This document shows positions 10,392-52,406 of a DNA stretch of 56,306 nucleotides, in pieces. The translations under genes and the position numbers were made by a program. Numbering within the stretch: the first letter of the stretch is position 1; each line of letters opens with the position of its first letter. The stretch is taken from the IMG/VR virus record IMGVR_UViG_3300027985_000330, positions 1-56,306 of that record; one strand, 5' to 3'. The notes under the pieces were generated by a model. That model ran no database searches and was not told the DNA's origin. It saw nothing but the letters and a program-made list of their open reading frames with translations. The DNA is from a virus. Lineage: Duplodnaviria > Caudoviricetes.

Positions 10392-10402
10392 ATCGCTTCA
10401 CC

Positions 10403-10843: not shown

Positions 10844-10860
10844 AACGTAATGTTTTCAGG

Positions 10861-10990
10861 TTACTCAACAAAAGCGGATCGCACCCCGACAATGCCGTAG
10901 CGAGCGCTGCGGGTGTAGCCGTTGTAGAGCGCAGCAACCCCAGCAGCGGAGCCGCTGATCCAAGTGCCGCCGCGAAGCGGTAGCCGTTCG
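10861..10990 (-). other. DGR-type variable region (VR) candidate
   Basis: GC-rich end of CLec gene; variable-position codons end in C/T (ACT, ATC, AGC, TAC, AAC, GGC, ACC, ATT, GTC) as expected from AAY-derived codons. Confidence 0.6.
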
Positions 10991-26493: not shown

Positions 26494-29400
26494 GGTTGTG
26501 TTGAGTTGGTTGTTTGTTCGATTTGCGTTGATGATGCTCGTTCGCTATCTGCTTTATCTTTTCTGAGCATAAAACATCCGATTCCAATGCACAAGCATAA
26601 AATAGCACCTGCAATGAAGGAAATTCCTGCGTCTCCGTTGGTTCCATCATTTTTCTTTATACCGTAGCACTCGACAATTGTGGCAAGTGACATGATAATG
26701 GATACAATGATAATGTAATTCATGATTTTGATTTTCCATCAAATAAGTTGTGCACCCATAATTTAAATCGCTCAAATGAGGTTGGTGGTTTGTGTGTACA
26801 TTCTGGATATGCAAGTCTTAATAGATCATTTGTGGGATCGGTAAATAAGCCATTGGATATAGCCACTTCTTCGTTTTTGATTATATCGATTGATCCATCT
26901 GGTCTTTGATAAAGTAATGTTCCAGGTTTTATGTCCGACAATGTTTTTCCATAAAATCGCATTTTTAGCGAATCAGCTTTTTCGCACCATTTGCGATATT
27001 CCTCATCGAGTTCAATTGCGTATTCGTGATAGTGGCTCATTATATGTATTCTTTCGGATTAAAGTCATTGAAGTCACAAATATATTCTTCGGTTCCATCA
27101 ATGTGAAAGTCGCCAAGATAAGCAGTATCACAATCAAGAATAGATACACATTGAAGCGAACCATTTGTGCGTTGCAATAATAGGTAATAATTATCACGAT
27201 ATTTCCAGATTTGTCCTGACTTTGGAATTCGTTTTTTTGGTTCGATGTAGAGCTCAAGATTGCTATCGTCTTGACTCCAACCATTAAAACTATCTTCTGG
27301 ATATTCAGCATAAAGCCATTTTCCACCCCACCAATAAATATAATTTATTGTATAAGGCTTTGGTGTTGCATGGCTTTTTGAAATGACCCTATCACCAACC
27401 TTAAATTTTTGTTGAGGACGTTTTTCAAAATCGGACTCCATCAATCCTGAAGTATGTAAAATTCCACTTACAACATTGTATGCAACACGATCGCAATTAT
27501 CAATACTTCTACTCGCGATAGTGGCAAAATTGCCGTGGTGATTACTCCACACCTCTTCACCGACCTCATATTTAGCAATCTTATTCAGAATTTCTTCTTT
27601 GGTTGCTTTTCTGAAAGCATATATACTCCAACCTGAACAATATCTAAGACTGCCAAGTGGTTCAAGCGTAGAAAATCTATCTCCAGAAATAGATGCGATC
27701 CTTCCTGTAAACTCCGAACGATATGTAGTCGAATCCAGCGTAACCCAATCTCCAACCTTGAAAACAGGTTCATTCTTGTTCAATTCTTCACGAATCGCTT
27801 TTACTTCGTCTTCAATCTTCTCTAACCGTGTGTTAATTGTATTCATATTTTACCAATTTCCGATATAATTTGTTTTATTCTTCAATGTGCTTATTTTCAG
27901 CTCTAATGCTTCAATTTGCGATTGATACGATCCAACGCTTTGATTTGCATTATGCAACGCTTTTGTCAGCCGGATATTCTCTTGTTCGAGATTGCGGGCA
28001 AATGATGATAAGACCACCTTGTGTCCTTCAAGTGTCACCTCTGCTTCGTCGGTCAGTGGTGTATTTGTGTTGCTCATTTGCGTGCCTCCCATTCGCTTAT
28101 TGCATCTCTAAGCTCTGCCATGATGATTTCCGATCCCTGTGATGGTTTGCTGAATTTTGATAGCTTTGCTTCAAGTCGCGCAAGTTGATCTTTTGCGATC
28201 TGATATTCAGATTCGTTTGTAATGCGTTTTTTTGCCATAGTTTTTTTAAATGTGTTCGATTGTGAATTCAACGTTTTCCGATTGCAGAAAAGCATCTATA
28301 AAGTCAACGGATTCCTCGACGTCAAGATGCTTGCAATAATCGATCATAGATGCATCAAATGCTTCGATGGATATGCAACCAATTGAGCTACTGATTGCAA
28401 AGCGGATTACGTTATGATCTTCGAAGTCATCCGAGAAAACGATGGGTGTTTTCAGCGTGTAAATTGAATTCAGGTGAATAGGTTTTTCTTTCATGATTAT
28501 GCATTTTTAAGAATGACACAAGCCCAATCGAATAAAGACAAATTCCAGTTTGATTGTGAAATCCAAGTTTCGCGTAAATCAATCATATACTCTGGATCTA
28601 ATGAGTAAAAGAATCCATCTACTGCTTTTAGCTTCTCAATTTCGTCGGATTCGTCAATGCCTAGAAATCTATCTTCCCATGCATATTTTACTGCATTGAT
28701 AAGCGATTTCGAAACTTCTGTTGAATTAATTGTTTTACATTTCATGATTCAAATAAAAAAGCATCAACTTGCTTGAGTCAATGCTTTTTTTAAAAAAGAT
28801 TTTTATTATTGTTTAATGCTTGAAATATAGTTAATTGCTTTTGTCAATGATCCCCATGTCGGCGATTCATTATAAAAGCTAAGACACTTGAGGATTATTT
28901 CTTGTGCCTTTTCTTGGCTTCCTGCAAGATTGAAAAGAGATCCATAAACTCTTACAATATGCCCTTGGATGTTTACTCCGAATTCTTCTCTGCTGATTGC
29001 GTCTGTTTTATTTTTCATGTTTATAATAGAACATGAATCAAAAACGATTTCAAGCACTTTTTTTAAAAAAAATAAAAAAAATTACAGCGGATATTTTTCC
29101 ATGCATTCGAGAACCGCGCTGCGAAAGGAATCTAAGTGATTCAAAACGCATTCCTTTGGTAGCGAAACTTGCGCGTAATTCTGATTCGGATCAGCTAGGT
29201 AATCGATAATTTTCTGATCGTCCAACAATGCAAGATATTCGTCTAGTTCGATTACAACTTTTTCGGTAAAATCCATGTCAGAATTCCCCCTTTACGATCA
29301 GCTTCGGCAGAAAATAAATCGCACAAGCCTGCAAAAAGGTAACATGCGGAATCCACGTTGAAAGCGGATCTAACGCATTAAGTAGCAGCATCACTGCAAG

Positions 29401-31720: not shown

Positions 31721-31803
31721 CAATAAAAAAGCCGTCGAAAGACGGCTAATCTAACACTGAGTTGGATTGCACCTCGTTACCTCGGGCAATCAACATTCTT
31801 GTT
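31721..31803 (+). repeat. ~82-bp direct repeat copy 1 (terminator + first attC-like site)
   Basis: Matches 42645-42726 except one substitution and one indel in the loop; identity ends at the GTT core. Confidence 0.95.
31725..31747 (-). terminator. Rho-independent terminator closing cassette array A
   Basis: GCCGTC-TTTC-GACGGC followed by T6. Confidence 0.8.
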
Positions 31804-32064
31804 CTGAGAAATAGTTATGGTTATACTTTCGCCCCTCTCTATTTGATTTTTTTCAACAAATGTTTCCAGTAGCTTTATAAATCCTGACAGTCCTCCAACA
31901 ATTGAAACCATTTCAGTGTCTTTGATTTTTCCCTTTGTTTCAGTGTCGTGACCAGCACCCCAAGATGTAAATCCGTATGTGCTGACAATGAATTTGCCAG
32001 AACAAGGCGTTTGAATTGAATTGCGAGAATCTCTCGCGTTTTGTTTGTCTGTTTCGTTGTTCAT
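31777..32064 (-). CDS. Cassette A1 hypothetical protein
   Basis: Likely start MNNETDK inside attC loop; C-terminus runs into the next attC arm. Confidence 0.6.
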   Translation of the reverse strand: MNNETDKQNARDSRNSIQTPCSGKFIVSTYGFTSWGAGHDTETKGKIKDTEMVSIVGGLSGFIKLLETFVEKNQIERGESITITISQNKNVDCPR

Positions 32065-32107
32065 ATCTTTATTAGTTCGTGTTCTCGCAATCATTCAACT
32101 TGTGGTT

Positions 32108-32356
32108 CTACAGATATTTGTTTGCGTCTTTCACGGCAGATCTATCCTGCTTGGTTGCAGACGGATAAACCATGTCAGCAAGTGGACACATCCGAAAATC
32201 TAGCACCATTTGAAATCTCCGAATGGTGAAATACCAGAGCCGACCACCCCAATACCGGTCAAATACAAACCACTTTTTCCAGCAGTTCTTATTCTTTTTG
32301 TGTTTTCGAAAGCTTACTTTTGGGAGCTTCCATCTATTTGCTTTTAACATATTCAT
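32108..32356 (-). CDS. Cassette A2 hypothetical basic protein
   Basis: Stop codon lies within core GTTCTAC. Confidence 0.6.
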   Translation of the reverse strand: MNMLKANRWKLPKVSFRKHKKNKNCWKKWFVFDRYWGGRLWYFTIRRFQMVLDFRMCPLADMVYPSATKQDRSAVKDANKYL

Positions 32357-32396
32357 AATAAAATTTTAGTAGAACAAATCAGTTCGTCGGAATTGC

Positions 32397-32771
32397 TTAC
32401 CGTTCCTGCTCGCAATCCACGACTTCGCGGTTCGGCAAATAAGGAAGCGGTATCCAGTGAGTTGGTTCATTCGCACCATCAAGCTTGTGCTGTGACACAG
32501 AATTTTTAACGTAACTCCACCATCCTTCTGCCTCTTGTTGTGAATCATAACCTTGATCCTTCCATAGCTCAACCTCAGTTCCATCTGTAGCGATTATAAC
32601 CCCAGTATCATAAAAGGCATTATGAACAATCCAAACAGATGCGAAATCGTATCCAACTATAATTTCAGTTCCATCTTTTGGTGCCGTCTCAATAGACATC
32701 CAAGCCGAACAAGGCGTTTTAAGAAACTCGCTACCGCTCGTTTCGTTTTGATTATGTATATCTTTTGTCAT
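32397..32771 (-). CDS. Cassette A3, DUF551-like phage protein
   Basis: WMSIETAPKDGTEII ... PTHWIPLP motifs; start in attC loop. Confidence 0.7.
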   Translation of the reverse strand: MTKDIHNQNETSGSEFLKTPCSAWMSIETAPKDGTEIIVGYDFASVWIVHNAFYDTGVIIATDGTEVELWKDQGYDSQQEAEGWWSYVKNSVSQHKLDGANEPTHWIPLPYLPNREVVDCEQER

Positions 32772-32792
32772 AGCTCGTTCTTAAACTTAGCG

Positions 32793-32987
32793 TTAGCTAG
32801 ATTCTTCATTGATTTCTTCTAATGTCATTTTGATTTTCGTTTCACCAATTCCGTGTTTATACCACAATAATGTAAACTCGTGTTTTGCCATATCGGTCAT
32901 ACCAGCGTTTAGAATCTTGGTGTATTCCGGCATAGCCCATTCTCCAGTCATTTCAATACATTCTTCAAATAATTCTCCAGCTTTCAT
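32793..32987 (-). CDS. Cassette A4 hypothetical protein
   Basis: AAAGGA RBS; TAA stop formed by the GTTA core. Confidence 0.6.
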   Translation of the reverse strand: MKAGELFEECIEMTGEWAMPEYTKILNAGMTDMAKHEFTLLWYKHGIGETKIKMTLEEINEESS

Positions 32988-33063
32988 AGCGTTTCCTTTC
33001 TAATTTGGAGCTAACAATACATTCTATGTAATCCTGAACCGCTCCGATCTCAGGATACATAAA

Positions 33064-33318
33064 TTAAGCGTTCGGAGAAATAAATTTCACCCACTCCCAA
33101 TGCCCAAACGTGCAAATAGAATCTCGATAACCGTATCCATGGCATCCAAGATTTCGACTTTCGTTGCTATGCTTGCGTGCCGTCGTTGCGCTTATTTTTG
33201 TCCAAAGCACTCCAAATTCATTTTGGAATCGGTCGCCTTCGATCAAATCTCCAAAGGTCACCGAACAAGGCGCTGTATCCAATTCGGACACGTCCGCGTT
33301 TTGGTTGTCGTTACTCAT
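33064..33318 (-). CDS. Cassette A5 hypothetical protein
   Basis: Likely start MSNDNQ in attC loop; TFGDLIEGDRF motif. Confidence 0.6.
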   Translation of the reverse strand: MSNDNQNADVSELDTAPCSVTFGDLIEGDRFQNEFGVLWTKISATTARKHSNESRNLGCHGYGYRDSICTFGHWEWVKFISPNA

Positions 33319-33357
33319 AATTTTTGTCCTCATGGATAAGCTTTGCGTTGGACACAT

Positions 33358-33618
33358 TTACTTAGATTGTGGAAACCCTGACGCCATTGCGTTGACTGCA
33401 ATAGCCCACATTAAAAGGATTATCCCAGTTGCTATTACTTCAATGTCGGTTTCAAAGTGATAGTTCCAGCCAACATACATGGTTGTTTCAAGCCAGTATG
33501 GAATTGTTGATACGATGGTAATAATTCCGGCATATATTTTTGTCCAACAAATCTGTGGAGAGGAACACTCTACCTGCTCCTCGGTTTTCGTAGTATCTGT
33601 TTTCATTTTAGCTTTCAT
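33358..33618 (-). CDS. Cassette A6 two-TM membrane protein
   Basis: Start in attC loop; two hydrophobic segments. Confidence 0.6.
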   Translation of the reverse strand: MKAKMKTDTTKTEEQVECSSPQICWTKIYAGIITIVSTIPYWLETTMYVGWNYHFETDIEVIATGIILLMWAIAVNAMASGFPQSK

Positions 33619-33641
33619 TTTTCGTGTCCCTCACATCGGCG

Positions 33642-34055
33642 TTATGCATTTAATGGTTGTTTCGTTTTTGCATCAATCCAACCTTGCTTTATTCCGAAAT
33701 CTTCATCGAAATCGTAAGTTTCAAATTTATGCGAATCACTTCTGTTTACACAATGGCAAAAGACCATTTCGCAACTTCTCTTTGTTAACGGTCCAATCTG
33801 ACGGTCAACTTTTCTGGTTTCTTTGTTTACGAGTTGTATATAATAGTTCATATCGAGGTTAGCCAATGAAGAATCCCGTTTTAGCCCCCGCCTGCCCATT
33901 TCGTCGCAATACACGACTAAACCAGCAAAGCACGATGCCTGCCAGTCCGAACCAGCCTCGGCTTCCAGCAGATCGGCGTGGGCCTGCTCTGCACGTTGCA
34001 TTAGTTCGGAATCCGCGAGGGATGCGGTATATTTTTTGATGTCTCCGTAAGTCAT
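33642..34055 (-). CDS. Fused ORF spanning two cassettes (junction at 33858)
   Basis: GC-rich 5' half joined in frame at core GTTAGCC to AT-rich half with own Met (MNYYIQ). Confidence 0.55.
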   Translation of the reverse strand: MTYGDIKKYTASLADSELMQRAEQAHADLLEAEAGSDWQASCFAGLVVYCDEMGRRGLKRDSSLANLDMNYYIQLVNKETRKVDRQIGPLTKRSCEMVFCHCVNRSDSHKFETYDFDEDFGIKQGWIDAKTKQPLNA

Positions 34056-34134
34056 AGTAAAAAAGAGAGGCTAACAAAGCGATCTAGCCAATTCAGACCC
34101 CGCTCGCTTTGTGGTTGTTCGTATGTTTTCTGAT

Positions 34135-34251
34135 TTAGTCTTCATGGCTAATCTTATGGTTCTCAGATAAAACAGGCAAGCGCAAAAGCGCAGCAACCTT
34201 TGCTTTGCTACCGCGTTTCTTCCGTTCGCGCTTGTAGTCGGGTGGGGTCAT
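34135..34251 (-). pseudogene. Short, apparently internally deleted HTH-like ORF
   Basis: MTPPDYKRERKKRGSKAKVAALLRLPVLSEN...; resembles first two helices of small Xre-type HTH proteins. Confidence 0.35.
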
Positions 34252-34454
34252 GCAATCCAAGATTTTACCTGTTCTTTGGTTGCAAAAGTCACATGGCCAT
34301 TGTCGGTTGTGACTTCAAATTTTCCTGCTACCGCATCGACGCGACGAGCGCGAAATCCGTTTTCCATCATTGGGCGAACTGGGGTGTTTTTTAGTGCTTT
34401 GTTGATTTTGTTTTGAAGTGTTTTCATATTTTTATGGTTTTCCGTTGGGCTCAT
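34248..34454 (-). CDS. Cassette hypothetical protein with own promoter
   Basis: ATGA-coupled to downstream HTH-like ORF. Confidence 0.55.
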   Translation of the reverse strand: MSPTENHKNMKTLQNKINKALKNTPVRPMMENGFRARRVDAVAGKFEVTTDNGHVTFATKEQVKSWIA

Positions 34455-34467
34455 TCCCTTCGATGTT

Positions 34468-34523
34468 TTTAATATCGCACAATCTGCGATTTATTGCAAG
34501 CATTATTTTCGCATTTTGTGCGA
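34468..34523 (-). promoter_or_regulatory. Cassette-internal promoter with two palindromic operators
   Basis: TTGCAA-17-GATATT; TCGCA-N5-TGCGA at 34475-34489 and 34509-34523. Confidence 0.55.
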
Positions 34524-34605
34524 TTTTTTTTAACCAAACAAAATGGAATGAGAACAAACTGCTGGAGTGAATGCCGAGAAAGCTCGTCATCCACTCAGCT
34601 CACGG

Positions 34606-34752
34606 TTATATAAATAAACAATCACATTCACGCCATGATTCACGTTTTTTATTGACGATAATCTCAACGTATTTCCCACCGTTTAGTTCGTATTTTTCAA
34701 CGAATGTTGCAACTAGTTTTAGTTTCTTGTGCATTACTTGTTTTGTTTTCAT
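34606..34752 (-). CDS. Hypothetical protein at head of array A
   Basis: Start MKTKQ just after promoter; TAA stop formed by last GTTA core. Confidence 0.5.
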   Translation of the reverse strand: MKTKQVMHKKLKLVATFVEKYELNGGKYVEIIVNKKRESWRECDCLFI

Positions 34753-34805
34753 GGTTGTATAGTAGCGCAAACGTATTACGCACGTCAATACTTTTTTTAA
34801 AAAAA
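34753..34805 (-). promoter_or_regulatory. Sigma70-like promoter with T7A7 UP-like tract driving array A
   Basis: TTGACG-18-TACTAT; related motif at 19997, 28778, 29050, 52133. Confidence 0.6.
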
Positions 34806-36239
34806 TTACAGCACGCCGTAAAATTTACCGTCATCGACTAAATGCGCGAACCCTTGAGAGAGTGCATCTACTTGGTCTTTGTATTTGCTTGCCGGAAAGT
34901 ATTGCAATTCATCAATCAAAGCACGATTCCACGCACCCCTAACCATTTTTACATTTCCGTTATTGACTTGAGATGCTAACGGTCCAGCCCGATCCGCTTT
35001 ATTACCTGTAGGCAAATCTATGATAACTTCCCAACCCATTAGCATTCTGGCCGTAGCTTCCGCAACCTCGAGTCCGCTCGATCCGCCTTGCCTTTCTATT
35101 ATAATCGGAATATTTTTACCATCTGCAGTTGCTGTCTGTTTTATGATTGGTTCACGTTCCGAAAAATCCCATTGGCCCCTAACCATGTCTAAAAACCAAA
35201 TAACGCCGCGAGTATCAATGCCAATCTCACATCCAGCAGTATAACATCCCCTATCCTTTAAACCGGCCGTATCCCAAGATCGAATGGATCTAACTAGATT
35301 ATATGGACGTTCATCTTCTATCTGTATCCGAGCTGTTTTAAACATGCCACCTTCTCGCGGAATCGGTGTTTGCATGTATTGGCATGCATATCCGAACGAA
35401 CCAAGAATAGCTTTTTTTTCATCTAAAACCGAACGCGACAACCGAACAGGATCGAGCAATCCATCTTTATAAAATCTTTTGTATTTTGCAGGCTTTACAT
35501 TATCGCTTAATTCGGCCGGAAAGCACAAATGTTTTATTTTTCCGCCTAGTTCTAATTTTGATCCGGTTGGATCGTCTTGCGCAATTCGCTGCATAATTAA
35601 TGCCTCAACAGAAACTGCAGAATCTACTTTTCTTGATGGCAAAACTTCATTTTGGAAAAGATTAGCTTTGTATTTTTCGGCATCAGAATCACCGTCTAAT
35701 ACTTTTAGCGGATCATCTGGAATAATAAAATGCGCATGACTTCCGGTTGGATTTCCACCTGTAGAAAATGTTAATCTTTCGCCCCCAAGCGTGTTTCCAA
35801 ATGTTTGAACTCCATCATTGTCACGCCTTATTTCAATTTCTGAAAAAAGCTTTTTATATTTATCACTCTTGATAATATCTCGACATTTCCTTGAAAGACG
35901 TTCAGCCAATCTCGATTCGCAACTTGTGCAAATAATAACCGCATGCGGCATTCTTGTCCATATCCATGCAGGAAAGGCAATCGAGCAAATACTGCTCTTT
36001 GATGTAGATGGTGGAACATTAATAATTAAATCATATAGCTTCTCCTTCCCATCAAATACGCGCTCTGCAACCTTTTGAAGCTCATTACATAATACCTCAT
36101 GATGGAAATTAATAACAAGCTTTTCATGGTTATTTACTTCCCAAAATTCTTTGAAGAAAATCAGAAAAGAACTCCTACACGCTTCAGCAAGAAATATGTC
36201 TTCGTTAATCTGCATTAATTCCGTAGTCTTTCGGATCAC
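34806..36239 (-). CDS. terL: Terminase large subunit
   Basis: IINVPPSTSKS Walker A variant, IIPDDP, IMQRI, SWDTA, DQVDALSQ. Confidence 0.93.
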   Translation of the reverse strand: MIRKTTELMQINEDIFLAEACRSSFLIFFKEFWEVNNHEKLVINFHHEVLCNELQKVAERVFDGKEKLYDLIINVPPSTSKSSICSIAFPAWIWTRMPHAVIICTSCESRLAERLSRKCRDIIKSDKYKKLFSEIEIRRDNDGVQTFGNTLGGERLTFSTGGNPTGSHAHFIIPDDPLKVLDGDSDAEKYKANLFQNEVLPSRKVDSAVSVEALIMQRIAQDDPTGSKLELGGKIKHLCFPAELSDNVKPAKYKRFYKDGLLDPVRLSRSVLDEKKAILGSFGYACQYMQTPIPREGGMFKTARIQIEDERPYNLVRSIRSWDTAGLKDRGCYTAGCEIGIDTRGVIWFLDMVRGQWDFSEREPIIKQTATADGKNIPIIIERQGGSSGLEVAEATARMLMGWEVIIDLPTGNKADRAGPLASQVNNGNVKMVRGAWNRALIDELQYFPASKYKDQVDALSQGFAHLVDDGKFYGVL

Positions 36240-36672
36240 AACCGCGTTGCTTAATCATATATATATTATACGCCATGAAATCTTGATCGTCTTTATCGTT
36301 TTCCCAATGCATAAAACCGAAGCAACGCAACGTCCAATACATAATTTCAGATTGTGTCATGTTATGTCCGTCCTCACGCAATATATCCAGAAAATACTGA
36401 TCACATTGCGCTTGTGTATATTGATGCGTGTGGTATCCCCAATCGTGAGCGAATGCAGCCCGAATGATACGCGGATCAAATGGAGAACCAACCAATGCCC
36501 AAGCGAATGAAGGGATGCTAGCACCATCAGATTCGAATCCATCCGGAATGAATACTTCACCGAATCGAGTATCAACCAACAAATCGCGCTTGAGTTTTAC
36601 ACATTCGCGAATTTTTGCATAATGCGGATATAAGCATGGTTCATAAAGTGGAATATATATGTCTGTATTCAT
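36205..36672 (-). CDS. DUF1353 family protein
   Basis: IPDGFESDGASIP ... AAFAHDWGY. Confidence 0.85.
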   Translation of the reverse strand: MNTDIYIPLYEPCLYPHYAKIRECVKLKRDLLVDTRFGEVFIPDGFESDGASIPSFAWALVGSPFDPRIIRAAFAHDWGYHTHQYTQAQCDQYFLDILREDGHNMTQSEIMYWTLRCFGFMHWENDKDDQDFMAYNIYMIKQRGCDPKDYGINAD

Positions 36673-36690
36673 ATATTCTAAATATATATG

Positions 36691-36855
36691 CTAAAATTCA
36701 GATAATGCAATTTCTCGCTTTTTGTGCTTATGCAATCGGTTGTTACGACACAAATCACACGATCTATGATTGCGGCATGTCCGATCAAATGATTTCGATC
36801 CTCTATAATGATGACGATGTTCTTTTCCGCTTATGATTGCCTTTAGTAAACTCAT
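36691..36855 (-). CDS. Small Cys/His-rich basic protein (below ORF-track cutoff)
   Basis: MSLLKAIISGKEHR...DRTCRNHRSCDLCRNNR; ATGA-coupled to minor head gene. Confidence 0.6.
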   Translation of the reverse strand: MSLLKAIISGKEHRHHYRGSKSFDRTCRNHRSCDLCRNNRLHKHKKREIALSEF

Positions 36856-37715
36856 GTTCTAAATCGTTTTCCTTCAATCACAGGTTTCCACGCGCAACGG
36901 CAACTGACGTGCTTAGGTATTTCTTCGTATGCATATTTCACTTCGAAAATCACACCCTCTAATGCAGCACATTGCGAACATACACGATCGTCTCCTGCTG
37001 TAGAAAATTCAACCATAGCCTCTACTTCATCTATGCCTAATCGTTCTAATGATGACAACTGCCCATATGCGTGCGAACGTATCGTCTCTGTTCGTGCTAT
37101 CGCAAATGCTCGCTTATTCGTCAATACGTCAATGCGCTCCAGCATTTGTTTAGCCGCTTCTGCTGGCCCTTGTCCATTCGCAATTGCGATTGCGAGTATT
37201 CGCCCCATCTCGTTAGACATTGCATCTGTAACGCCTTCCAGTGCATCATACGCTCGCGTATAGAGTAGCCCTAGCTTATCTACCGTCTCTTTTGATGAAA
37301 ATGCTTCAGACATCCATTGCGCTTTTTTTCCGGCAAAGAAATTATCATCATCGAGCAATCCCGCTTTATTTACATCGTAATAACTGCGTTCGTATCCTTT
37401 ACGATATGCGCTTTCTATATACGTATTCTGCCACGGATTTCCGGTGCTGTCGGTCGTTAAAATACCTGCGTCAATTTGTTCCTGAAGCCATTCTTTGAAC
37501 TTCGCAATTTTTTCGGTTGATGATAAAAATGCGAATTCACGATAACGGTTAAATATATTTGGACGCACTTCTTCTTTTAGCCCGAATGCATCATCTTTGC
37601 CTACGAGTTGATTTATCTGGCGTTTCATCCATGAAAAGCGTTGCTTCATGTCATTAAGATAACGCCGTCTAAGCGTGAGCGTTTTTGATGGATCTACTTG
37701 GTATGTGGTTGCCAT
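36852..37715 (-). CDS. Minor head morphogenesis protein (SPP1 gp7 / Mu gpF-like)
   Basis: IARTET, TAGDDRVC..C, PKHVSCRC. Confidence 0.9.
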   Translation of the reverse strand: MATTYQVDPSKTLTLRRRYLNDMKQRFSWMKRQINQLVGKDDAFGLKEEVRPNIFNRYREFAFLSSTEKIAKFKEWLQEQIDAGILTTDSTGNPWQNTYIESAYRKGYERSYYDVNKAGLLDDDNFFAGKKAQWMSEAFSSKETVDKLGLLYTRAYDALEGVTDAMSNEMGRILAIAIANGQGPAEAAKQMLERIDVLTNKRAFAIARTETIRSHAYGQLSSLERLGIDEVEAMVEFSTAGDDRVCSQCAALEGVIFEVKYAYEEIPKHVSCRCAWKPVIEGKRFRT

Positions 37716-37996
37716 GATTGAAATAAAACATAGCGCACTTGCTAATCATCCATTCACAAATGCGCCATGTAATCTACATAATATATATTGAAAAATTAAT
37801 CTTTTAGTTCATTTAACTGCGAAATTAGAAAATCAACCGAACCTCTACCTCTTGAAATAGAAACGCTTTTTGAATAAATCAGCGAATCTTCGCTTGCGTC
37901 TCCATCATATGCATTTTCAATGATAATGATTTGATTACCATCATCACTTAGTTTTACTTGAACTGTTTTTGTATCGTATGTTACTTTATTCATAGC

Positions 37997-39211
37997 TTAT
38001 TCCTTTTTCTTGTAATCTAAAAAATAATCTGTATGCGCAATCTCGTTTGTCCACTTCGGAACAATCTGAATTGAATATCCGCTATAGCTATCTCCAAAGT
38101 TATGCTGAACCCACGCGCTAGGCGGTGCGAAACTCATAAAGTTTCTATAATCAAACCGCTTCGTCCGCTCGTATCCAACTTGATGCAAATCACCTTTATG
38201 AACATGCACGAATTTTGAATCAATTCCATAATGTTCAATATAATCCCATATGAAATTCTTTGCCGCATCAGTAAGCTTAAACGGTAATCCACGATTCTGA
38301 AACTTGGCATCCTTTCCATGTGTCAATACAAAGCAATGATTTCCGTAAACGCGATGCTCTACAAAACGTTTAATTGTATCTATCTCAACAATAGATGAAT
38401 CATAAAGCATGTTTATAATCTTCTGAACGGCACTATTCACAATCAATGCAAATTGATGAGAATGATTTGCATTAGTAACCGTCCGAAGCATAATCTTATT
38501 TGCAATTCTCGCGTCAACGCACGAGCGCACAAGCTTTACCTTATTATCTACACAACACTCAAACATTTCAAGCTCTGTCATATTTTGTTCAAGCGAATGA
38601 TTTCCGCGAGTTGTAAGTCCATTCCATCCGTCTTGTGTATCGCCCAAATCATCCAGCAAAAGCAAATCAAATGTTCCATATTGTCGATGCTCTTTTTCGA
38701 TTGATCCGAATACCTTTTGCATGGATTCTCCGTAGACTTGTGCATTATATTCATACGCGAAAATTGAATCTATTGGCAACGGATCAAGCCCAACGTGCTC
38801 ATCGCTTGTTACCGCAACGCAAGCCATTGGATCACTAATCTTTATCGGCTCAAATAAGATAGGATCATCTACTGGATATTTTCGAATGATCTTTTCAAAT
38901 GCATCAAGGTAATCAATAGCGTTTGTTTTATCAAGCTTCGTATAGACGGACATCTCTTTTGATTTCGTCCAATAGCTTGATACCTCTGAAATGTTGATTC
39001 CTTTTTCTTTACAAAACGCCCTTAACACCTCATGATTAACTCCTTCAAGAACCTGATTGCTATTTTCAATTCGCTTTCCCTCTATAAATGCTTTCACCCA
39101 CATTCTACAGGTCATTTCGCTTATATTGAATCTTTCTGAAATTTGCCTTCTACCTAATCCGCTTTCCATTGCGGCGTAAATCTCATCAGGTATTTCTACG
39201 GTTACTTGCAT
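37997..39211 (-). CDS. Metallophosphoesterase/nuclease-like protein with N-terminal HTH
   Basis: SDEHVG, LGD, ANHS, THG, GDLH. Confidence 0.7.
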   Translation of the reverse strand: MQVTVEIPDEIYAAMESGLGRRQISERFNISEMTCRMWVKAFIEGKRIENSNQVLEGVNHEVLRAFCKEKGINISEVSSYWTKSKEMSVYTKLDKTNAIDYLDAFEKIIRKYPVDDPILFEPIKISDPMACVAVTSDEHVGLDPLPIDSIFAYEYNAQVYGESMQKVFGSIEKEHRQYGTFDLLLLDDLGDTQDGWNGLTTRGNHSLEQNMTELEMFECCVDNKVKLVRSCVDARIANKIMLRTVTNANHSHQFALIVNSAVQKIINMLYDSSIVEIDTIKRFVEHRVYGNHCFVLTHGKDAKFQNRGLPFKLTDAAKNFIWDYIEHYGIDSKFVHVHKGDLHQVGYERTKRFDYRNFMSFAPPSAWVQHNFGDSYSGYSIQIVPKWTNEIAHTDYFLDYKKKE

Positions 39212-39390
39212 CGTTTTTGCTGTTTGTGTTGACGTTGAAAACCATACTCGCGATTTTCATATTCTTCTACCAAATTCATCAGGTATTCCCGATATTGCGC
39301 ATCTTCACTTGTAGATTCGAACTCATCTAAGTCGTAAATGATCTCCAATGCAATAGCGCAATCGTGATCGTTTCTAATTCTAGTAATCAT
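39202..39390 (-). CDS. Small protein resembling the N-terminal domain of HigA-type antitoxins
   Basis: IRND.D...AL.II.DL ... YLMNLVEEYENREY; lacks HTH. Confidence 0.4.
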   Translation of the reverse strand: MITRIRNDHDCAIALEIIYDLDEFESTSEDAQYREYLMNLVEEYENREYGFQRQHKQQKRCK

Positions 39391-39474
39391 TTAATTTCAA
39401 AGTTTAACAAATGATATTCTTTTGTCAATAATATGAAACTAAAATGAATCTCAATGCAAGCTTTTTATTTTAAA

Positions 39475-40320
39475 TCAGCGATATTCCCTTGTATTTTTCA
39501 CAAGAATTATATCAAATCCAGCAAAAACATCAATATCATTTGTAGATGCTGTAGAAACATGAATCCATATGTCTGTTTTTTCAGGAATCCTAATCGGTAT
39601 CATTCCGCCAGATGGAACGGAAATGAATTCCGCAATCTTATCATTTGAAATGCCTCTTACCGTTAAGGTTCTAACGCCTTCATTTGGTGAATGGATTTTC
39701 AGCTCGGATACGATTGCTATATTTAAAACCCGACCCGAATCACAATAAGCTCTAGTCACAAATCCGGTATAGCCATTAGGTATTGTGTATATTGCCTGTA
39801 GTGTTTGTCCATATCCGGCTAAAATCTGAGCACAAACCGCACCACCGCCAGCGACTCTTATGTTTATATTGCCCTGATTTATATCGGTAGATCCACATTG
39901 CGTATTGTATGCCCTATATATTCGGATATATGTTTTAGACAATGCAACAGCATTCGTCCCGTCCATCTCAATATCTTCTTGCGACAAATCCCAATTTGAA
40001 TCCAATCCAAAGACCCTGATTTTTTGTGCTCCAGTTCCAACCAAATCATCTAATGCCGAGCTGGATACTACTTCCAAAGATTGAGCAGTATCGAAAAATC
40101 CAGTATAATTTCCGCCATTTGACCAAACATCCTCATTTCCAGAATTATCAATATCGAAATTTGCACCAAATTTCGAAACGTATTTTACATCATCTCCAAA
40201 GGCTCCTCCAGAAATAGCGATACCTAAATCTGAATTTATATCATATCCATTTTTGATATAGTTAGGATCTGCAAATAAATTCATAGAGAAAAATATGATC
40301 AATATACAGGAATTTTTCAT
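39475..40320 (-). CDS. Hypothetical beta-rich protein with signal-like N-terminus
   Basis: KFGAN.DID, GTGAQKIRVFGLD, AIYTIPNGYTG. Confidence 0.5.
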   Translation of the reverse strand: MKNSCILIIFFSMNLFADPNYIKNGYDINSDLGIAISGGAFGDDVKYVSKFGANFDIDNSGNEDVWSNGGNYTGFFDTAQSLEVVSSSALDDLVGTGAQKIRVFGLDSNWDLSQEDIEMDGTNAVALSKTYIRIYRAYNTQCGSTDINQGNINIRVAGGGAVCAQILAGYGQTLQAIYTIPNGYTGFVTRAYCDSGRVLNIAIVSELKIHSPNEGVRTLTVRGISNDKIAEFISVPSGGMIPIRIPEKTDIWIHVSTASTNDIDVFAGFDIILVKNTREYR

Positions 40321-40502
40321 AGCTTTAAGATTTCACGGTTATCCAAGATAGTTGACGATTAACAATGCGTTGAGCTGCGTCCCTCGCTTCTTTCTCGCGT
40401 TCCGGCATTGCACAATCAATCATCGTTCGCAAGTCATTATTGTTATCGGATATATCATCCATAGCTGATCCAATGTCAGCACCTATCCGAACGCGCAAAT
40501 CC

Positions 40503-42011
40503 TCATTGCGCTGATTGATCAACTGAACCAGTATCATTTCCGTCTTGTGTTAAAGCTTGTTCGTCTCCAGAATAAGCTTTTTGGTTTTTATCAGCATTTT
40601 CAATAATTTGCTGTATTAATTCGTCGTCGAATCCCCAAATTATAGAATAATAATCCTCACGCGTCATTATTGATTCAAGGTTGCTCTGTGTATACAGTGC
40701 AAGTGCTTTTGTTTTCTTTTCAGCACTTTCCGCCAGTTCTTCGGGTGTGAGTTTATTAAGATCTGGAAACTCAACAGAGAACTTCTCAACGCGCGGCAAT
40801 ACACCATAATCCATCAATCTATTGATTACCGGACGAATAATTTTTGGAATAATGTATTTCGTTTGACGGCGCATCAATCGCTTGTTCCATGCTTTTTTAT
40901 CTTCCGCACTCGCATATTTCGCTTCTTCGCTACCCAAGAAAATTCTCCACGGAACTTCTAACGCTATACATATTGCCTGTAATTGTATTGCAATGTGTGG
41001 AGTTGGATCGTTGATTGTTCCTGCTACCGTTTTAACGCTTCCGGTTCCGACCATGTATTTTTGCAATGATTCCGACAAACGTTCGAGTTGTTCCTTGATT
41101 GCTCCCTTCAGCGTTTCACTTGCGTTAATCTTTGCTGCCGCTTCCGGAGACATTTCGAAAATCAGCGATGGAAATGCATTCTTCCAATATCCTTCAGCCG
41201 ATGCACCATAGATTTTTCTCAGATTATACACATTGTTATAAACAGGCTTTAACTCTGGAGTTCCTTTTGTGTCGCTATCCAAGCAATTATCCGCTAAATG
41301 ATGGCAACGCGTCCAGTGAAACTTCATCGTCTTTGTTTCGAGTGGATTCGTTGTTGTAGCTTCAGATAAGTAATCTTTATATGTAACAGAATAAATGACA
41401 GGCTTTCCAAATCGTGGGCTATTCGTTCTTGTCTCCCATCGGTCAATCGTGATTGACGGTTCAGAATATGCACGGATATATAGCAATGAATGCGATAGAT
41501 TCTCGTTCCACTTCTCAGATGCTTCATCATATCCTTCAACCGGTAAAGAAGTATCTATATTGTTTGCATCATTCAATCCGAAAACGATTATTCCATAATG
41601 TCCAATCTTCGACAGAATATCAGCACGAAGCATCATTTCATAAAGCGAATGCTCATCATTGAGTATTTCTATGCCTCTTTCAAATTCTGTTTGCTGGCTT
41701 ACGTCTTCTGTTTCGTAAATCCATGGATCATCAGCCCAGCTTTCCTCCGGTAATAGCGATACAATTCGCGCTCCAATAGCCTCACGATCAAAAATTTCTT
41801 TATATTGTGATAGTGTTATTTGAGATGGATAATTACACTCGTTATTAATATCCTTTTTTCCATCAACTGAACCCGTAAAACGATCAAACAATGTTCGAAT
41901 CGCATTAGATACAGAATGATAATGATTCATCGCAAACATTTCAACATTCGAAATAGCATTCGATACATGCGCTAAAACCGTTTTTTCTTCTGCTTTATTA
42001 TCTCCCGACAT
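40503..42011 (-). CDS. Portal protein (DUF1073-like)
   Basis: SPRFGKPVIY, FHWTRCHH, GASAEGYWKNA, VPWRIFLGSE...ASAED. Confidence 0.88.
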   Translation of the reverse strand: MSGDNKAEEKTVLAHVSNAISNVEMFAMNHYHSVSNAIRTLFDRFTGSVDGKKDINNECNYPSQITLSQYKEIFDREAIGARIVSLLPEESWADDPWIYETEDVSQQTEFERGIEILNDEHSLYEMMLRADILSKIGHYGIIVFGLNDANNIDTSLPVEGYDEASEKWNENLSHSLLYIRAYSEPSITIDRWETRTNSPRFGKPVIYSVTYKDYLSEATTTNPLETKTMKFHWTRCHHLADNCLDSDTKGTPELKPVYNNVYNLRKIYGASAEGYWKNAFPSLIFEMSPEAAAKINASETLKGAIKEQLERLSESLQKYMVGTGSVKTVAGTINDPTPHIAIQLQAICIALEVPWRIFLGSEEAKYASAEDKKAWNKRLMRRQTKYIIPKIIRPVINRLMDYGVLPRVEKFSVEFPDLNKLTPEELAESAEKKTKALALYTQSNLESIMTREDYYSIIWGFDDELIQQIIENADKNQKAYSGDEQALTQDGNDTGSVDQSAQ

Positions 42012-42012
42012 G

Positions 42013-42339
42013 TTATTTTAAAGATTCCTGTTTAATTCGTTCGCGCTCAATGTCATTAATTTTACCATAAACCGAAGTCGCAATTTCATCTAGCGTTATA
42101 ACATTTTCATCGATTAAAATGTTTTTTGATAGGTCTTCGATTCCGTTTAAATATGCGAACATTGCATATTCAGAAAAGCTTTTTTGAATATCTTCGAGTC
42201 TGTCCTTATCAACAACAAGTCGATACGTTCCAATTTGAGTATCGCTATCCAAATAGAGCACACCTGAATAGACAGGTGCACTCTTGTAAGAACAGGATGA
42301 TAATAACAATAGACAGACTATGAAAAAAGCTTGTCGCAT
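42013..42339 (-). CDS. Small lipoprotein
   Basis: Lipobox LLSSC. Confidence 0.5.
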   Translation of the reverse strand: MRQAFFIVCLLLLSSCSYKSAPVYSGVLYLDSDTQIGTYRLVVDKDRLEDIQKSFSEYAMFAYLNGIEDLSKNILIDENVITLDEIATSVYGKINDIERERIKQESLK

Positions 42340-42644
42340 TACTCCTTGACTTTTGAAAACGCTTTCTGAATTTCTTCGAATGTTTCCTTCGCAGACGATT
42401 CGCCTTCTTTTAGTTTATTCAGCAATTCTGCGGTTGTTGGAGTTTCCATGTCGTCATCGTTTTTGATAACGTTGTAAATGGCTTTCCCAATTGAGAATAA
42501 ATCGGGAACGTATTTTAAAATCGCAAGTGCTTTGACGGCGATTTGATAAATGAGTGTTAATGACATAATAGCTATTTGTTCAAAAAATAGCATAGTCAAA
42601 AACGAATTAAAAGCAAATATGAACAAACGTTTACATATTTTAAT

Positions 42645-42726
42645 CAATAAAAAAGCCGTCGAAAGACGGCTAATCTAACACTGAGTTGGATTGCACCTCG
42701 TTACCCCGGCAATCAACATTCTTGTT
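42645..42726 (+). repeat. ~82-bp direct repeat copy 2 (terminator + first attC-like site)
   Basis: Matches 31721-31803. Confidence 0.95.
42649..42671 (-). terminator. Rho-independent terminator closing cassette array B
   Basis: Identical to 31725-31747. Confidence 0.8.
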
Positions 42727-44200
42727 GGCAAGAGTATTTTTCTTTAAGTCTGCGAAGTTGCTCGCGTTCATTCGCTTCAATTTGCTCCCGTTTTTTATGT
42801 TCAGACTCTAATCTAAACTGATATTCTTCATCTGTTTCAAGTCTATCATATTTTACCTCAATGGTTGCAGTCGCGCTATCATAGAACTCGTATGCATCAG
42901 TTCTGAAGATAGTATGCTCTATATGTTCCTCCGGAATGTATTCAACCAAGTCATTAATCCACTTTTGAAAGTCTAAAATGTTATTATTCCAATCGGAAAT
43001 ATCCAAATCAGACCAATCTTGATCGTTGTATATATATACTGTTTTAGTTCGTTTTTCCATTTTCGTAAGTTTATTTAATGATAACAAAGCAGTTCGATTA
43101 ACTCGCTACCGCTCGCAATCGACTTTTGGGTTAGCAAAGTAATTGCTCTATTGCTATAAGCATACCAGAAGCTTCGAGCATTTGCCCGCCAATGACAGCT
43201 TTAAATGTCTTTGAGTTTTCTGGTGATCGTTCATACTCCTTTTCTAGCGTATCAATTCTGCCATTGATATAGCTAACAAGTCGTTCGAGGTCGGAATTGC
43301 GAACACGCCGCAATTCCGAAGTATCATTATTTGTTGTCATATCTTTTCGGTTTTAAAGTTTTAGTTACTCGCAATCCCTCAACTTATGGTTATGCATATG
43401 ATATTGCTTCAATCAGTTCCTTATATTGTGGATTCTGTTTTATTGCGCGTTCTGCACCATCCCAATACAGATCATCCACAACCCTTTTTGGCATCATTGC
43501 CTTTGCGACTTCGATTTGTGATCTTAGTCTCGCTTTTGCCATTTTAATTTGGCGTATTTGTTCTTCAATTTCTGCATTCATGGCATAACAAGGCGTTTTA
43601 AAAAATTCCGCAATTCTCCATCTCTTTTAGTTCGATCATTCATCATGCGCTCCATTCTTAAACTTTTGGTTCGCTAAAATAAAATTTGCATACTCCAACG
43701 CCCTTGAGCTTCTGAATACTCCCCAAAACTCTGCCCAAGTTCCATCTCCACAATCTACGTTCCACGTTTCCACGCTTGTGTCGAATGTAACAAGCGGATG
43801 ATTTGTTTTTCGTATCCAACTATCTTCGACTTCGTAATCTAATAGAATTAATTGCGAACAAAACGGTGGAAGCAATTCGCTACCGTTCATCTTCTGATTT
43901 TCATTAGTTTGTGTTTTATCGCTCATGCTTCGCCTTTGGGTTTCCAAAATATCGATCAACGTCTATATTCCATTGAATCAACTCATCGATCTTTCGCCTA
44001 ACATCTGCTACAGTCTTGCACCCATCTGCCGTTCCAATACAAGCTACGATCATCATTTCATCCAGTGCCTTGTAGTATATGTTGCCCTCGGTGTCGGTTT
44101 CCGAGAATCCATCAGAACAATCCGCGTAAGAGGAACGCTCTATTGCACTAGTTTTGTTTTCGTTGCTCATGGGTTCGAGTCCCTCACATCTGCGTTAGAG
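42673..44200 (+). mobile_element. Cassette array B: cluster of 6 attC-like sites, no integrase (CALIN-like)
   Basis: Sites at 42673-42730, 43079-43136, 43271-43395, 43583-43675, 43853-43946, 44112-44200 separating five minus-strand ORFs (ending at 42713, 43131, 43390, 43636, 43916). Confidence 0.85.
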
Positions 44201-48357: not shown

Positions 48358-48798
48358 TCAGCTTTCTATTAACATTTTACGATATTGCTTCATTCTCAGC
48401 TTTGCATTATTCGCAGGCTCAACGCCATTGTCAAGCAAAATTTTACGCTGTTCCTTCGATGACAATCTACCAAAACGACGCACGATGATAGGCAATCCTT
48501 TTGGATGCATAATGTCTGTTTGTTTCGTTGACCATATAGCGCATCGTTTCAGGATTGTCTCAAGATCGAGTTCGTATCTCTGAACAAGCGCATTCATTCG
48601 CGTTTTCCATGCGTTTTCGATTTTACCTAGCAACACATTCGATTCACGATGCACGACTCCACGAACAAAACCGCTGCAATGGTCGTGATCTACAACTGCG
48701 CAATCATCATTAAGCGGAATATCAAGAATAGGGCATCTCTCTGGTTTGTTTGCAATGCGCCACTCTCGAAGTTCGTCTGTGTTACGTATGATTTTCAC
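48358..48798 (-). CDS. Endonuclease VII-like (His-Me) nuclease
   Basis: CPI, VVDHDHCSGFVRGV, N..LGKIEN. Confidence 0.8.
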   Translation of the reverse strand: MKIIRNTDELREWRIANKPERCPILDIPLNDDCAVVDHDHCSGFVRGVVHRESNVLLGKIENAWKTRMNALVQRYELDLETILKRCAIWSTKQTDIMHPKGLPIIVRRFGRLSSKEQRKILLDNGVEPANNAKLRMKQYRKMLIES

Positions 48799-49763
48799 AA
48801 TTCACCAAATAATTCTTGTTGGTCTTGTTTCCCTGAATTAACAGCTTCATCGCAGTTAAGAACAGCTTGCTTATAATATGTAGATTTTAACTCTGCTCCG
48901 ATTGCTTTTCTTCCATTTATTAATGCCCCGTATGCTTCACTTCCAACACCCAAAAATGGAGTTAATACTACTTCATCTGGATTGCTTCTTAATACAATAG
49001 TCCTCTCAATGACATCCAGTTGCAAAGGATGCACATGGCGTTCATCGTCTGGATCTTTACATTCCTTATATGGCAACACACGATCAATTCGAATGTCATC
49101 CCAGAATGCGCTCGCATATTGTCGCCATATCCAATGAGAATAACGATTTTCAGTTTGCTTCCCTGTATGCCCTTTCCATTGTAACAATTCATGTGGAATC
49201 TGTCTTTCGCCAGCATATGAATGTAATCCGGTTGGATGAATAACAGGAACTTTATTTTCTCCTTTTTTTCTAAACAAAAGCAAATAGTCCGCGCTTGCAA
49301 CGTCACATAAAATTGAATCATCAACAATCTGTTTGTGAGCTAAACCTTTTGCCATTGTTCTGTTTCTAACTCCAAGAGGTTCTTTCCAAATATGGTAACG
49401 CGCAATATATTTAAAACCAAGCCTTTCATGCATTCGGATAATATCACCAGGAAAGTCAATCAATGATCCACCAGTATTTGCTCCATGAGTTGGAATATCC
49501 ATGCAATGAACAGCACTACAACGACCCGATTTTGTAGTTCGAACAATTTGGTTAACTAAGTATTCATAGTGCTTAAAAAACTCATCATATGATTTGCAAT
49601 TACTCATATCACGTTCATCTGAACTGTAATTATATAGTCCGCAAAACGGAGGAGAATAAATAGACAAATCAACAGAATCATCTGGCAATGCGCTTACGAC
49701 ATCAACGCAATCTCCATTATAAAGAGCATATCTATCTGTTATTTTTTGTGCAATTACATCCAT
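48795..49763 (-). CDS. DNA methyltransferase, N4-C/N6-A beta class
   Basis: SPPF, HVHPLQLDVIER, TPFLGVGSE. Confidence 0.9.
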   Translation of the reverse strand: MDVIAQKITDRYALYNGDCVDVVSALPDDSVDLSIYSPPFCGLYNYSSDERDMSNCKSYDEFFKHYEYLVNQIVRTTKSGRCSAVHCMDIPTHGANTGGSLIDFPGDIIRMHERLGFKYIARYHIWKEPLGVRNRTMAKGLAHKQIVDDSILCDVASADYLLLFRKKGENKVPVIHPTGLHSYAGERQIPHELLQWKGHTGKQTENRYSHWIWRQYASAFWDDIRIDRVLPYKECKDPDDERHVHPLQLDVIERTIVLRSNPDEVVLTPFLGVGSEAYGALINGRKAIGAELKSTYYKQAVLNCDEAVNSGKQDQQELFGEL

Positions 49764-52157: not shown

Positions 52158-52406
52158 TTATTCACAACCGTTTTCTTTGAATGCCTTCAAAATTTCATCC
52201 AAGAAATACTCACGCGCAAAATGTAAATGCTTGCACCGTGTAGACGCATTAGATGCTCCATCGCGACGCTTAGGCCAGCAACGGCATTGGAACTGTTTGC
52301 AAGTGCAGACATCTTCGACTATATCAACGAGGTATTCGTCAATGTCTTTGTCCGATGATGACGTGATCCAGAATCGCGTTGGAGAATCAAAAGAGCGTAT
52401 TTTCAT
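52158..52406 (-). CDS. SWIM zinc-finger protein
   Basis: CTC...CKH. Confidence 0.7.
   Translation of the reverse strand: MKIRSFDSPTRFWITSSSDKDIDEYLVDIVEDVCTCKQFQCRCWPKRRDGASNASTRCKHLHFAREYFLDEILKAFKENGCE

Follow-up and report, generated by a model that had tools for sequence, protein, structure and literature searches.

Two integrase-less attC arrays in a tailed-phage contig with cassette genes on the attC bottom strand and candidate start codons inside the sites

The 56,306-nucleotide stretch analysed here in full (the window), IMG/VR virus record IMGVR_UViG_3300027985_000330 from the Caudoviricetes, carries two groups of attC-type sites, the recombination sites of integron gene cassettes. 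Our interpretation is that they are two attC-site clusters with no integron integrase (CALINs), with nine and six sites and 13 cassettes, in a layout that mirrors that of canonical cassettes and in which the site itself supplies a start codon and a leader to the gene behind it. We put the probability of this interpretation at roughly two in three. An initial annotation, made from the letters of the sequence, had proposed inverted cassette genes that start inside attC loops, and its claims are taken up below where the relevant results are given.

On the + strand of the window there are exactly five copies of the motif AACAARGCG, all in 32.0-34.1 kb or at 43.6 kb, and each is the left end of an imperfect palindrome with the order R'' (xxxxAAC), 5 nt, L'', loop, L', 5-6 nt and R' (GTTxxxx). 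In total, 15 such sites are present, all with + as the top strand. Array 1 (31749-34611) comprises the short sites S1 (31749-31807), E1b (32369-32436), Ec (33009-33076) and E11 (34549-34611), interspersed with the long-loop sites E1 (31997-32111), E2 (32704-32798), E3 (33260-33353), E4 (33542-33647) and E5 (34069-34165). Array 2 (42673-44200) comprises the short sites S2 (42673-42730) and E6 (43079-43136), followed by the long-loop sites E7 (43271-43395), E8 (43583-43675), E9 (43853-43946) and E10 (44112-44200), the last with a degenerate L box. Five of the short sites, S1, S2, E1b, Ec and E11, were absent from the initial annotation. The available part of Cury 2016 (PMC4889954) defines a CALIN as two or more attC sites that share a strand, lie within 4 kb and have no integron integrase close by; here, nine sites fall within 2.9 kb and six within 1.5 kb, all on the + strand and with no integrase.

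The terminal AAC (R'') and GTT (R') triplets are present in all 15 sites, and the R-box triplet pairs are invariant; in the excerpts of Nivina 2016 (PMC5027507) at hand, the AAC triplet is the only part conserved among all attC sites. Across the aligned 15 sites, a 10-pair core structure has 88% of its cells paired, compared to 27-46% when the partner column was slid. In the L box 84% of the cells pair, and five of its six pairs have changed on both sides, that is, in a compensatory manner. The spacers between the R and L boxes are unpaired, with 5 nt facing 5-6 non-complementary nt. The left spacer reads AAnnC in 13 of the 15 window sites and in all five sites of our control, the class-1 array estX-psp-aadA2-cmlA1-aadA1 of phage P1 isolate MH445380 (isolate named by Qi et al. 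2023). When the six short sites were aligned by themselves with MAFFT, the R' end was misaligned, and this alignment was set aside. The stretch GGTTCGAGTCCC (44172-44183), considered as a tRNA fragment, was rejected as such because it is the L' arm of E10, and Rfam and tRNA scans of the window found nothing.

A covariance model (R1), trained only on the 15 window sites in + orientation, was used to search 305 kb. Of the five class-1 attC sites in the control, it missed the estX site and matched the other four with both ends exact (20.8-23.2 bits, E 0.0095-0.037). All of these matches lay on the cassette-coding strand and none on the opposite strand, and within the arrays the window sites were matched on the + strand only. 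MH445380 gave one weaker + strand match (E 0.45), which begins at the 3' end of a + strand dihydrofolate reductase coding sequence. Outside the arrays, a weak match on the - strand at 29037-29160 (15.7 bits, E 0.58) is probably due to chance. The five control sites themselves aligned too unevenly for a model.

The position of extra bases also separates the two strands. In anchored arm alignments of the 15 sites, 32 extra bases lie on the + strand 5' arm and three on the 3' arm. They fall at positions 14-16 in 13 of the 15 sites and also at 20-23 (E1b has three on its 5' arm, E8 has none and E10 is degenerate). The control sites carry theirs on the top-strand 5' arm, with C or G at position 16 in five of five and A23 in four of five, and the extra bases of the window partly share letters with the control top strands (A at 22-24). 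According to the portions of Nivina 2016 (PMC5027507) available to us, extra-helical bases G16/T20/T24 or G16/T23 lie near L'', and their location makes the bottom strand the recombined one. The strand preference of R1, the side of the extra bases and the side of the AAnnC spacer together identify + as the attC top strand, in agreement with the initial annotation.

Were this strand call wrong, the cassettes would be canonical, with genes on the top strand, an attC behind each gene and a start codon lent to the next gene, which is what the portable module of the initial annotation would entail. Such a layout could draw on the complementarity of successive cores described below, which is symmetrical and gives no direction, and on several cargo starts that lie very near the core, as in canonical cassettes. 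We regard it as highly improbable nonetheless, given that R1 recognizes the controls on their coding strand only and the window sites on + only, that extra bases are divided 32 to 3 and occupy control-like positions, and that the AAnnC spacer is on the same side as in the controls. Two repeats speak against it as well: the one shared by S1 and S2 retains the left flank together with the site and breaks at GTT, and the one shared by E11 and site C2 of contig C129, from the same bin, keeps the site with 86 nt of left flank.

Cassette boundaries were read from the cores. At 41 of 52 variable positions, the R' 7-mer of one site and the R'' 7-mer of the site that follows are reverse complements, and six of the 13 junctions are perfect, among them GTTCTAC/GTAGAAC, GTTCGGC/GCCGAAC and GTTAGCT/AGCTAAC. 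Permutation of the cores gave a mean of 19.6 and a maximum of 39, with none of 100,000 permutations reaching 41, and R' and R'' of the same site match at 17 of 60 positions only. The same chain is seen in the class-1 control (three of four junctions perfect), in C129 (the one junction checked) and in G151, an unrelated phage contig (both of its junctions). This complementary core chain is the trace left by crossover at G|TT, and it defines 13 cassettes of 254-518 nt. Since the crossover in R' falls at the 3' end of the gene, the attC that heads a gene would move with it in the same cassette; the site would therefore be the gene's own start and not one lent to a neighbor.

Each of the 13 cassettes contains one - strand open reading frame (ORF), whereas the genes of the control array lie on the top strand in five of five cases. 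With + as the top strand, all 13 cassette genes are thus encoded on the attC bottom strand. A codon log-odds test, for which the long genes of the phage served as training set, gave positive scores to 13 of 14 small - strand ORFs, the 14th being scored out of frame. The + strand ORFs, whose expression the initial annotation had named as one of two observations that would overturn its layout, were negative without exception (17 of 17). Searches of Pfam and PHROGs returned nothing firm for 12 of the 14 small ORFs.

All nine long window sites (89-125 nt) have an ATG on the bottom strand of the loop, and these loops are 42-56% A, compared to 34% for the whole strand. In seven of them the ORF continues through the arm and into the cargo, with 19-25 codons inside the site. 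Six use the frame in which TGTT is read as Cys followed by Ser or Trp: E1 (gene 31777-32064, leader MNNETDKQNARDSRNSIQTPCS), E2 (32397-32771, DUF551-like, leader of 22 codons), E3 (33064-33318, leader MSNDNQNADVSELDTAPCS, with a GTG directly behind the site as alternative start), E4 (33358-33618, leader ending ..SSPQICW, with hydrophobic stretches in the protein), E9 (43636-43926, leader MSDKTQTNENQKMNGSELLPPFCS) and E10 (43916-44170, leader MSNENKTSAIERSSYADCS). E7 is read in a second frame (43131-43340, leader ending ..RNSDLERLVS). No relatives were found for the E1 and E9 cargos. These are the arms that the initial annotation had described as translated. Its more general statements need qualification: the loop ATG is the only plausible start in seven of the 13 cassettes, whereas the remaining ones have their own ATG, and the portable start module that it proposed would belong to the gene's own cassette.

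In the other two long sites the loop ORF ends at or beside the cargo's own ATG. A mini-ORF of 24 codons in E5 (34071-34145, -, MKTKSENIRTTTKRAGSELARSLC) stops at a TAG in R'', 15 nt before the ATG of gene 33642-34055. The 22-codon mini-ORF of E8 (43578-43646, -, MMNDRTKRDGELRNFLKRLVMP) has a stop that overlaps the ATG of gene 43390-43581 (ATGA). Four cassettes lie behind short sites and have their own ATG 13-95 nt past the site. Their genes are 32108-32356 (ATG 13 nt past E1b), 32793-32987, 34248-34454 (behind E11 and preceded by an operator-like inverted repeat at 34471-34527) and 42713-43060 (phrog_25568, ATG 17 nt past E6).

The initial annotation had suggested comparing cargo proteins with homologues outside cassettes, and for gene 32397-32771 this comparison places the start of conservation directly behind R''. 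Ten relatives were found at E <=7e-12. Residue 24, the Trp immediately behind R'' at which the core begins, is invariant in 11 of 11 aligned proteins, and no start codon lies between the loop ATG and this Trp. Half of the relatives (5 of 10) begin 1-4 residues ahead of it. A profile search with the same cargo yielded 5852 relatives, and among the 159 proteins retained from it, 48 have the core Trp within their first nine residues. Two relatives have similar leaders, ending ..PACSTW and ..ATCSASW. AlphaFold2 modelled the protein confidently from about residue 21 to 114, with pLDDT (predicted local distance difference test) values below 50 at residues 4-20, in the leader, and at residues 115-124, which are exactly the tail encoded by the neighboring site. 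The leader is thus predicted to be disordered. A lipoprotein signal at ..PCS was considered and rejected, as no hydrophobic stretch is present.

The 3' ends of the genes are also set at the sites. Six ORFs stop at the core TAA or TAG of the neighboring site, and six of the seven cores that offer a stop are used in this way. Five of these stops, at 32793, 33642, 34606, 43131 and 43390, are the TTA of a GTTA core (G at 32792, 33641, 34605, 43130 and 43389) and had been listed in the initial annotation; they include the TAA codons of genes 32793-32987 (E2 core), 33642-34055 (E4 core), 43131-43340 (E6 core) and 43390-43581 (E7 core). The sixth, of gene 32108-32356, is a TAG at 32108 in the E1 core. 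Six other ORFs enter the arm of the neighboring site by 6-33 nt. Run-on had been noted for the ends at 31777 (into S1), 32397 (last 10 residues from the E1b arm), 33064 and 43916 (into E9), and we add those at 42713 (into S2) and 43636 (into E8). Because these tails are encoded by the neighbor's arm, C-termini would change with cassette order, as had been proposed.

In the direction of transcription, the last element of each array is a short S-type site, behind which an intrinsic terminator lies on the - strand. S1 is the last site of array 1 and lies directly before the terminator at 31730-31747; S2 is the last of array 2, with its terminator at 42654-42671. Terminator and S-type site together form a 78-nt direct repeat (31722-31802 and 42646-42724, 97% identical), which brackets a block of about 10.9 kb containing array 1 and the terminase-to-portal genes. 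Homologous recombination between the copies could delete or invert this block.

Sites of the same family were found on two further contigs. The last 570 nt of C129 (9359-9928) overlap positions 1-570 of the window at 94% identity, and C129 represents either a sister phage or the neighboring stretch of a strain variant. Beyond the overlap it has a replication and recombination module that includes a Rad52-type annealing protein and a putative sliding clamp ORF. A third cluster, of three attC-type sites, is present on C129, with genes again on the other strand: an S-type site that is 98% identical to S1, the site C2 mentioned above, and a long site, C3. E11 with its 86-nt left flank (34463-34617) is 93.5% identical to C129 2249-2401, although the cargo differs. 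The flank of E11 holds a 19-nt inverted repeat (34471-34489 and 34509-34527), and site plus flank look like a portable module that combines an attC with a putative operator or promoter.

The second contig, G151, is a 37.5-kb IMG/VR phage contig of 57.5% G+C with three sites. As in the window, their genes are mirrored and an ATG lies in each loop; the core chain is perfect, and the array lies directly upstream of two large ORFs read as the terminase subunits TerS and TerL. At one G151 site (V0, 793-882) two overlapping ORFs, of 82 and 101 amino acids, start inside the site in different frames. A loop ATG is thus found in all three G151 sites and in C3 of C129 as well as in the long window sites.

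Other searches added little. Relatives of the window's large terminase reach at most 49% identity in IMG/VR and 53% in metagenome contigs, and no R1 match at E <0.01 was obtained at their loci (the best, L052, at E 0.03). The Polaribacter phage P12002L, which has a published CALIN, gave weak R1 matches only (best E 0.045). An exact 16-mer search of viral contigs returned 23 loci, by rough estimate about the number expected by chance, and none of the 12 loci found in genome contigs with a gapped pattern passed R1 at E <=0.1; these, too, were taken as chance. Two DNA sequencing runs hold the region. They may be its source, and they may be one data set filed twice. Contigs from these runs break at attC sites, and some enter unknown DNA right after the GTT of E1b-like and Ec-like sites. 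The identity over the aligned stretches is only about 93%, so that these probably represent further copies of such site types rather than alleles of this locus. One joint, from 32108 to 33262, was not relied on, since its shorter side comprises just 30 letters.

Several observations weigh against our interpretation. At the level of the sites, the consensus GTTRRRY fits R' in one of the 15 sites and RYYYAAC fits R'' in three, compared to four of five control sites for R'. Folding of the bottom strand as RNA gave z-scores from -2.8 to +0.9, unremarkable overall, and the canonical shape is the minimum-energy fold for six of the 15 sites only; DNA folds of loosely cut candidate regions were uninformative. 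No tyrosine recombinase (PF00589) was found on the window contig, no integron integrase (TIGR02249) above the cut-off in the 76%-complete bin, and none in G151 or in 150 other genomes sampled from the bin's family. R1 had no match in 149 other genomes of that family.

These points would fit an explanation in which the hairpins are regulatory elements of phage RNA or DNA (processing sites, attenuators or shuffling units similar to the promoter-early stem-loops, PeSLs, of T4-type phages) that merely look like attC and are no integrase substrates. No integrase accompanies them in the phage contigs, the bin or the sampled family genomes, their R boxes fit the consensus poorly beyond AAC and GTT, and their location at gene starts makes a regulatory role plausible. 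We nevertheless consider this explanation the most improbable of those weighed here. R1, trained on the window sites, detects class-1 attC sites at their exact ends, and the geometry of spacers, L box and extra bases is identical to that of the controls. The complementary 7-mers at cassette ends are a signature of DNA recombination that a function in RNA leaves unexplained. Moreover, other phage attC sites do serve as substrates, since IntI1 recombined five of six that were tested, as stated in the part of Qi 2023 (PMC9892861) available to us.

At the level of the leaders, the counterevidence concerns where translation starts. In E2 an ATG lies three codons behind the site, and in E3 a GTG lies directly behind it. 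In C129, a stop interrupts the C3 leader, but the cargo is intact and has an ATG directly after R''. None of the sequencing runs listed with the region is of RNA, and cargo homology could be examined for one fused cargo only (32397-32771). It could hence be that the attC sites are real and the leaders by-products, the loop being open because of its purine-rich composition and ribosomes starting behind the site. All three reading frames across the arm occur among the window sites and C129, and the leader is predicted to be disordered, both of which would suit this explanation. To us it is an unlikely alternative, albeit one with some weight. In five of the seven fused ORFs the next in-frame ATG, GTG or TTG is at codon 39-54, and a start there would remove 15-30 codons of cargo; the E9 cargo has no ATG at all behind its site. 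In gene 32397-32771 a start at M25 would lose W24, which lies in the confidently modelled part. By a rough estimate, about one third of loop ORFs would be in frame with the cargo by chance, compared to the seven of nine observed, and the loop ATG recurs in G151, a phage of very different G+C.

Overall, this indirect evidence favors translation of the leaders. The stop in the C3 leader, with its cargo intact, indicates that leaders are dispensable where the cargo has its own ATG. Since three frames are used and one leader is interrupted, what is kept would be an open start rather than a particular peptide. The shared leader might itself be functional, for instance in capsid targeting as in T4 internal proteins. 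This idea can coexist with our interpretation. It has in its favor that both arrays flank portal, head-morphogenesis and terminase genes, that the G151 array adjoins its TerS and TerL ORFs, and that unrelated small proteins have a hydrophilic N-terminus in common. However, the frame used over the same DNA varies from site to site, the conserved residues map to DNA positions that pairing constrains, and covariation links the L box to the arm that is not translated. The leaders show no common cleavage motif, and one third of the cassettes have no leader. We therefore hold a function of the leader to be very unlikely.

Hairpin or leader modules that head small variable genes are familiar from the PeSL cassettes and the capsid-targeting-sequence locus of T4-type phages, where genes are shuffled by homologous recombination at sequence repeats or unrelated proteins share an N-terminus. 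Those loci have neither the attC architecture nor the complementary core chain of the window.

Canonical cassettes and attC sites (MH445380 and, in excerpt, PMC5027507) resemble those of the window in the order R''-spacer-L'' to L'-spacer-R', the unpaired spacers, extra bases at about 16 and 20-24, the variable loop and the core chain. They differ in that 13 of 13 window genes are on the bottom strand, against five of five on the top strand in the control. Unlike a complete integron, which has intI, attI and Pc beside the array, the window has none of the three; in addition, GTTRRRY is mostly not kept, and the long loops contain an ATG.

Integrase-less attC arrays in phages, virulent ones included, have been described (Qi 2023, PMC9892861), and one of these phage CALINs adjoins a terminator with inverted GTTRRRY motifs. 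Their cassettes point in the same direction, as is typical of bacterial arrays, and the accessible text of that paper mentions no bottom-strand genes, loop starts or translated arms. The closest functional precedent is provided by ORF-11, ORF-17 and ORF-18 in attI1 and by short ORFs in attC, which give translational coupling (PMC8876359, as excerpted). As proposed for the window, a start codon in the site aids cassettes that have no initiation region and the core supplies a stop, and the E5 and E8 mini-ORFs share the geometry of these coupling ORFs. [quoted passage not shown] The full-text literature, in the portions available and with the supplements of Qi 2023 outside its scope, yielded no description of bottom-strand cassette genes that start in attC. 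Phage CALINs and leader ORFs in att sites are thus already published; the mirrored, putatively translated layout was not found described.

The window is the whole of contig C244 in a bin of 2.74 Mb, and its sizeable ORFs are all on the - strand. PHROGs and Pfam identified tail genes at 0.3-7.7 kb, the large terminase (34806-36239), a head-morphogenesis protein (36852-37715), the portal (40503-42011) and, at 45-56 kb, a module for replication and modification. Among named phages, those of Cellulophaga and Croceibacter have the nearest terminases, at 37% identity. From gene content and these terminases, the contig is that of a tailed phage whose host probably belongs to the Bacteroidota. The two arrays lie on either side of the portal-terminase block, so that the span of 31997-44170, which the initial annotation had treated as one, includes ordinary genes for packaging and head over about 8 kb (34.8-42.6 kb). 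A megablast search of 31-45 kb against phage records found no match. Within the head genes, a 404-amino-acid ORF (37997-39211) has a match to phrog_22398 and a weaker one to a family of DNA repair exonucleases, such a gene being unusual at this location. G+C rises to 46-47% at 10000-13000, compared to about 38% elsewhere, which coincides with an ORF of 918 amino acids (10861-13617) whose C-terminal part matches phrog_2889, of unknown function. Two DNA methyltransferase-like genes (48795-49763 and 52403-53440) lie in the replication module, outside the arrays; methyltransferases are among the phage CALIN cassettes reported in the available text of Qi 2023 (PMC9892861).

Each cassette gene is thus encoded on the attC bottom strand, with its own attC at the 5' end and a shared GTT crossover point at the 3' end. 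We propose that at seven of the nine long sites translation would start at the ATG of the A-rich loop, proceed through the arm from L'' over the spacer to R'' and enter the cargo in frame, so that the site would supply a start codon and a disordered leader. Bacteroidota are known for initiation that is independent of Shine-Dalgarno sequences, and an ATG displayed in a loop rich in A would fit this mode. The E5 and E8 mini-ORFs, which end at or beside the cargo ATG, have a geometry that may serve translational coupling. The 3' end would be set by the cassette boundary, either at a core TAA or TAG or by run-on into the neighbor's arm. The arrays would be transcribed by read-through from phage promoters and ended by the terminators, and the cassettes would be moved by an integron integrase acting in trans. 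More speculatively, the recombining strand is the non-template strand, and transcription may thereby aid its folding and recombination.

Integron cassettes are promoterless units that are read from the top strand by a platform promoter. A cassette that has its start inside the recombination site and on the opposite strand would, if our interpretation is correct, represent a second route by which captured genes become expressible. It predicts hairpin-encoded N-termini, C-termini that depend on the neighbor, and a strand preference of the integrase. We tentatively suggest, at somewhat less than even confidence, that these arrays represent a phage-own class of mirrored integron cassettes in which attC acts both as recombination site and as gene head, providing the start, the leader and, in the E11 type, perhaps a promoter or operator. 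If so, each mirrored cassette could be expressed at any landing place in a phage lacking an attI and Pc platform, and the near-identical site types in phages of 38% and 57.5% G+C would imply exchange of such cassettes between phages whose hosts are unrelated. Such a layout would help to explain how phages with neither integrase nor platform keep and use cassette arrays, and it would tie integron biology to the hypervariable small-gene regions of phages.

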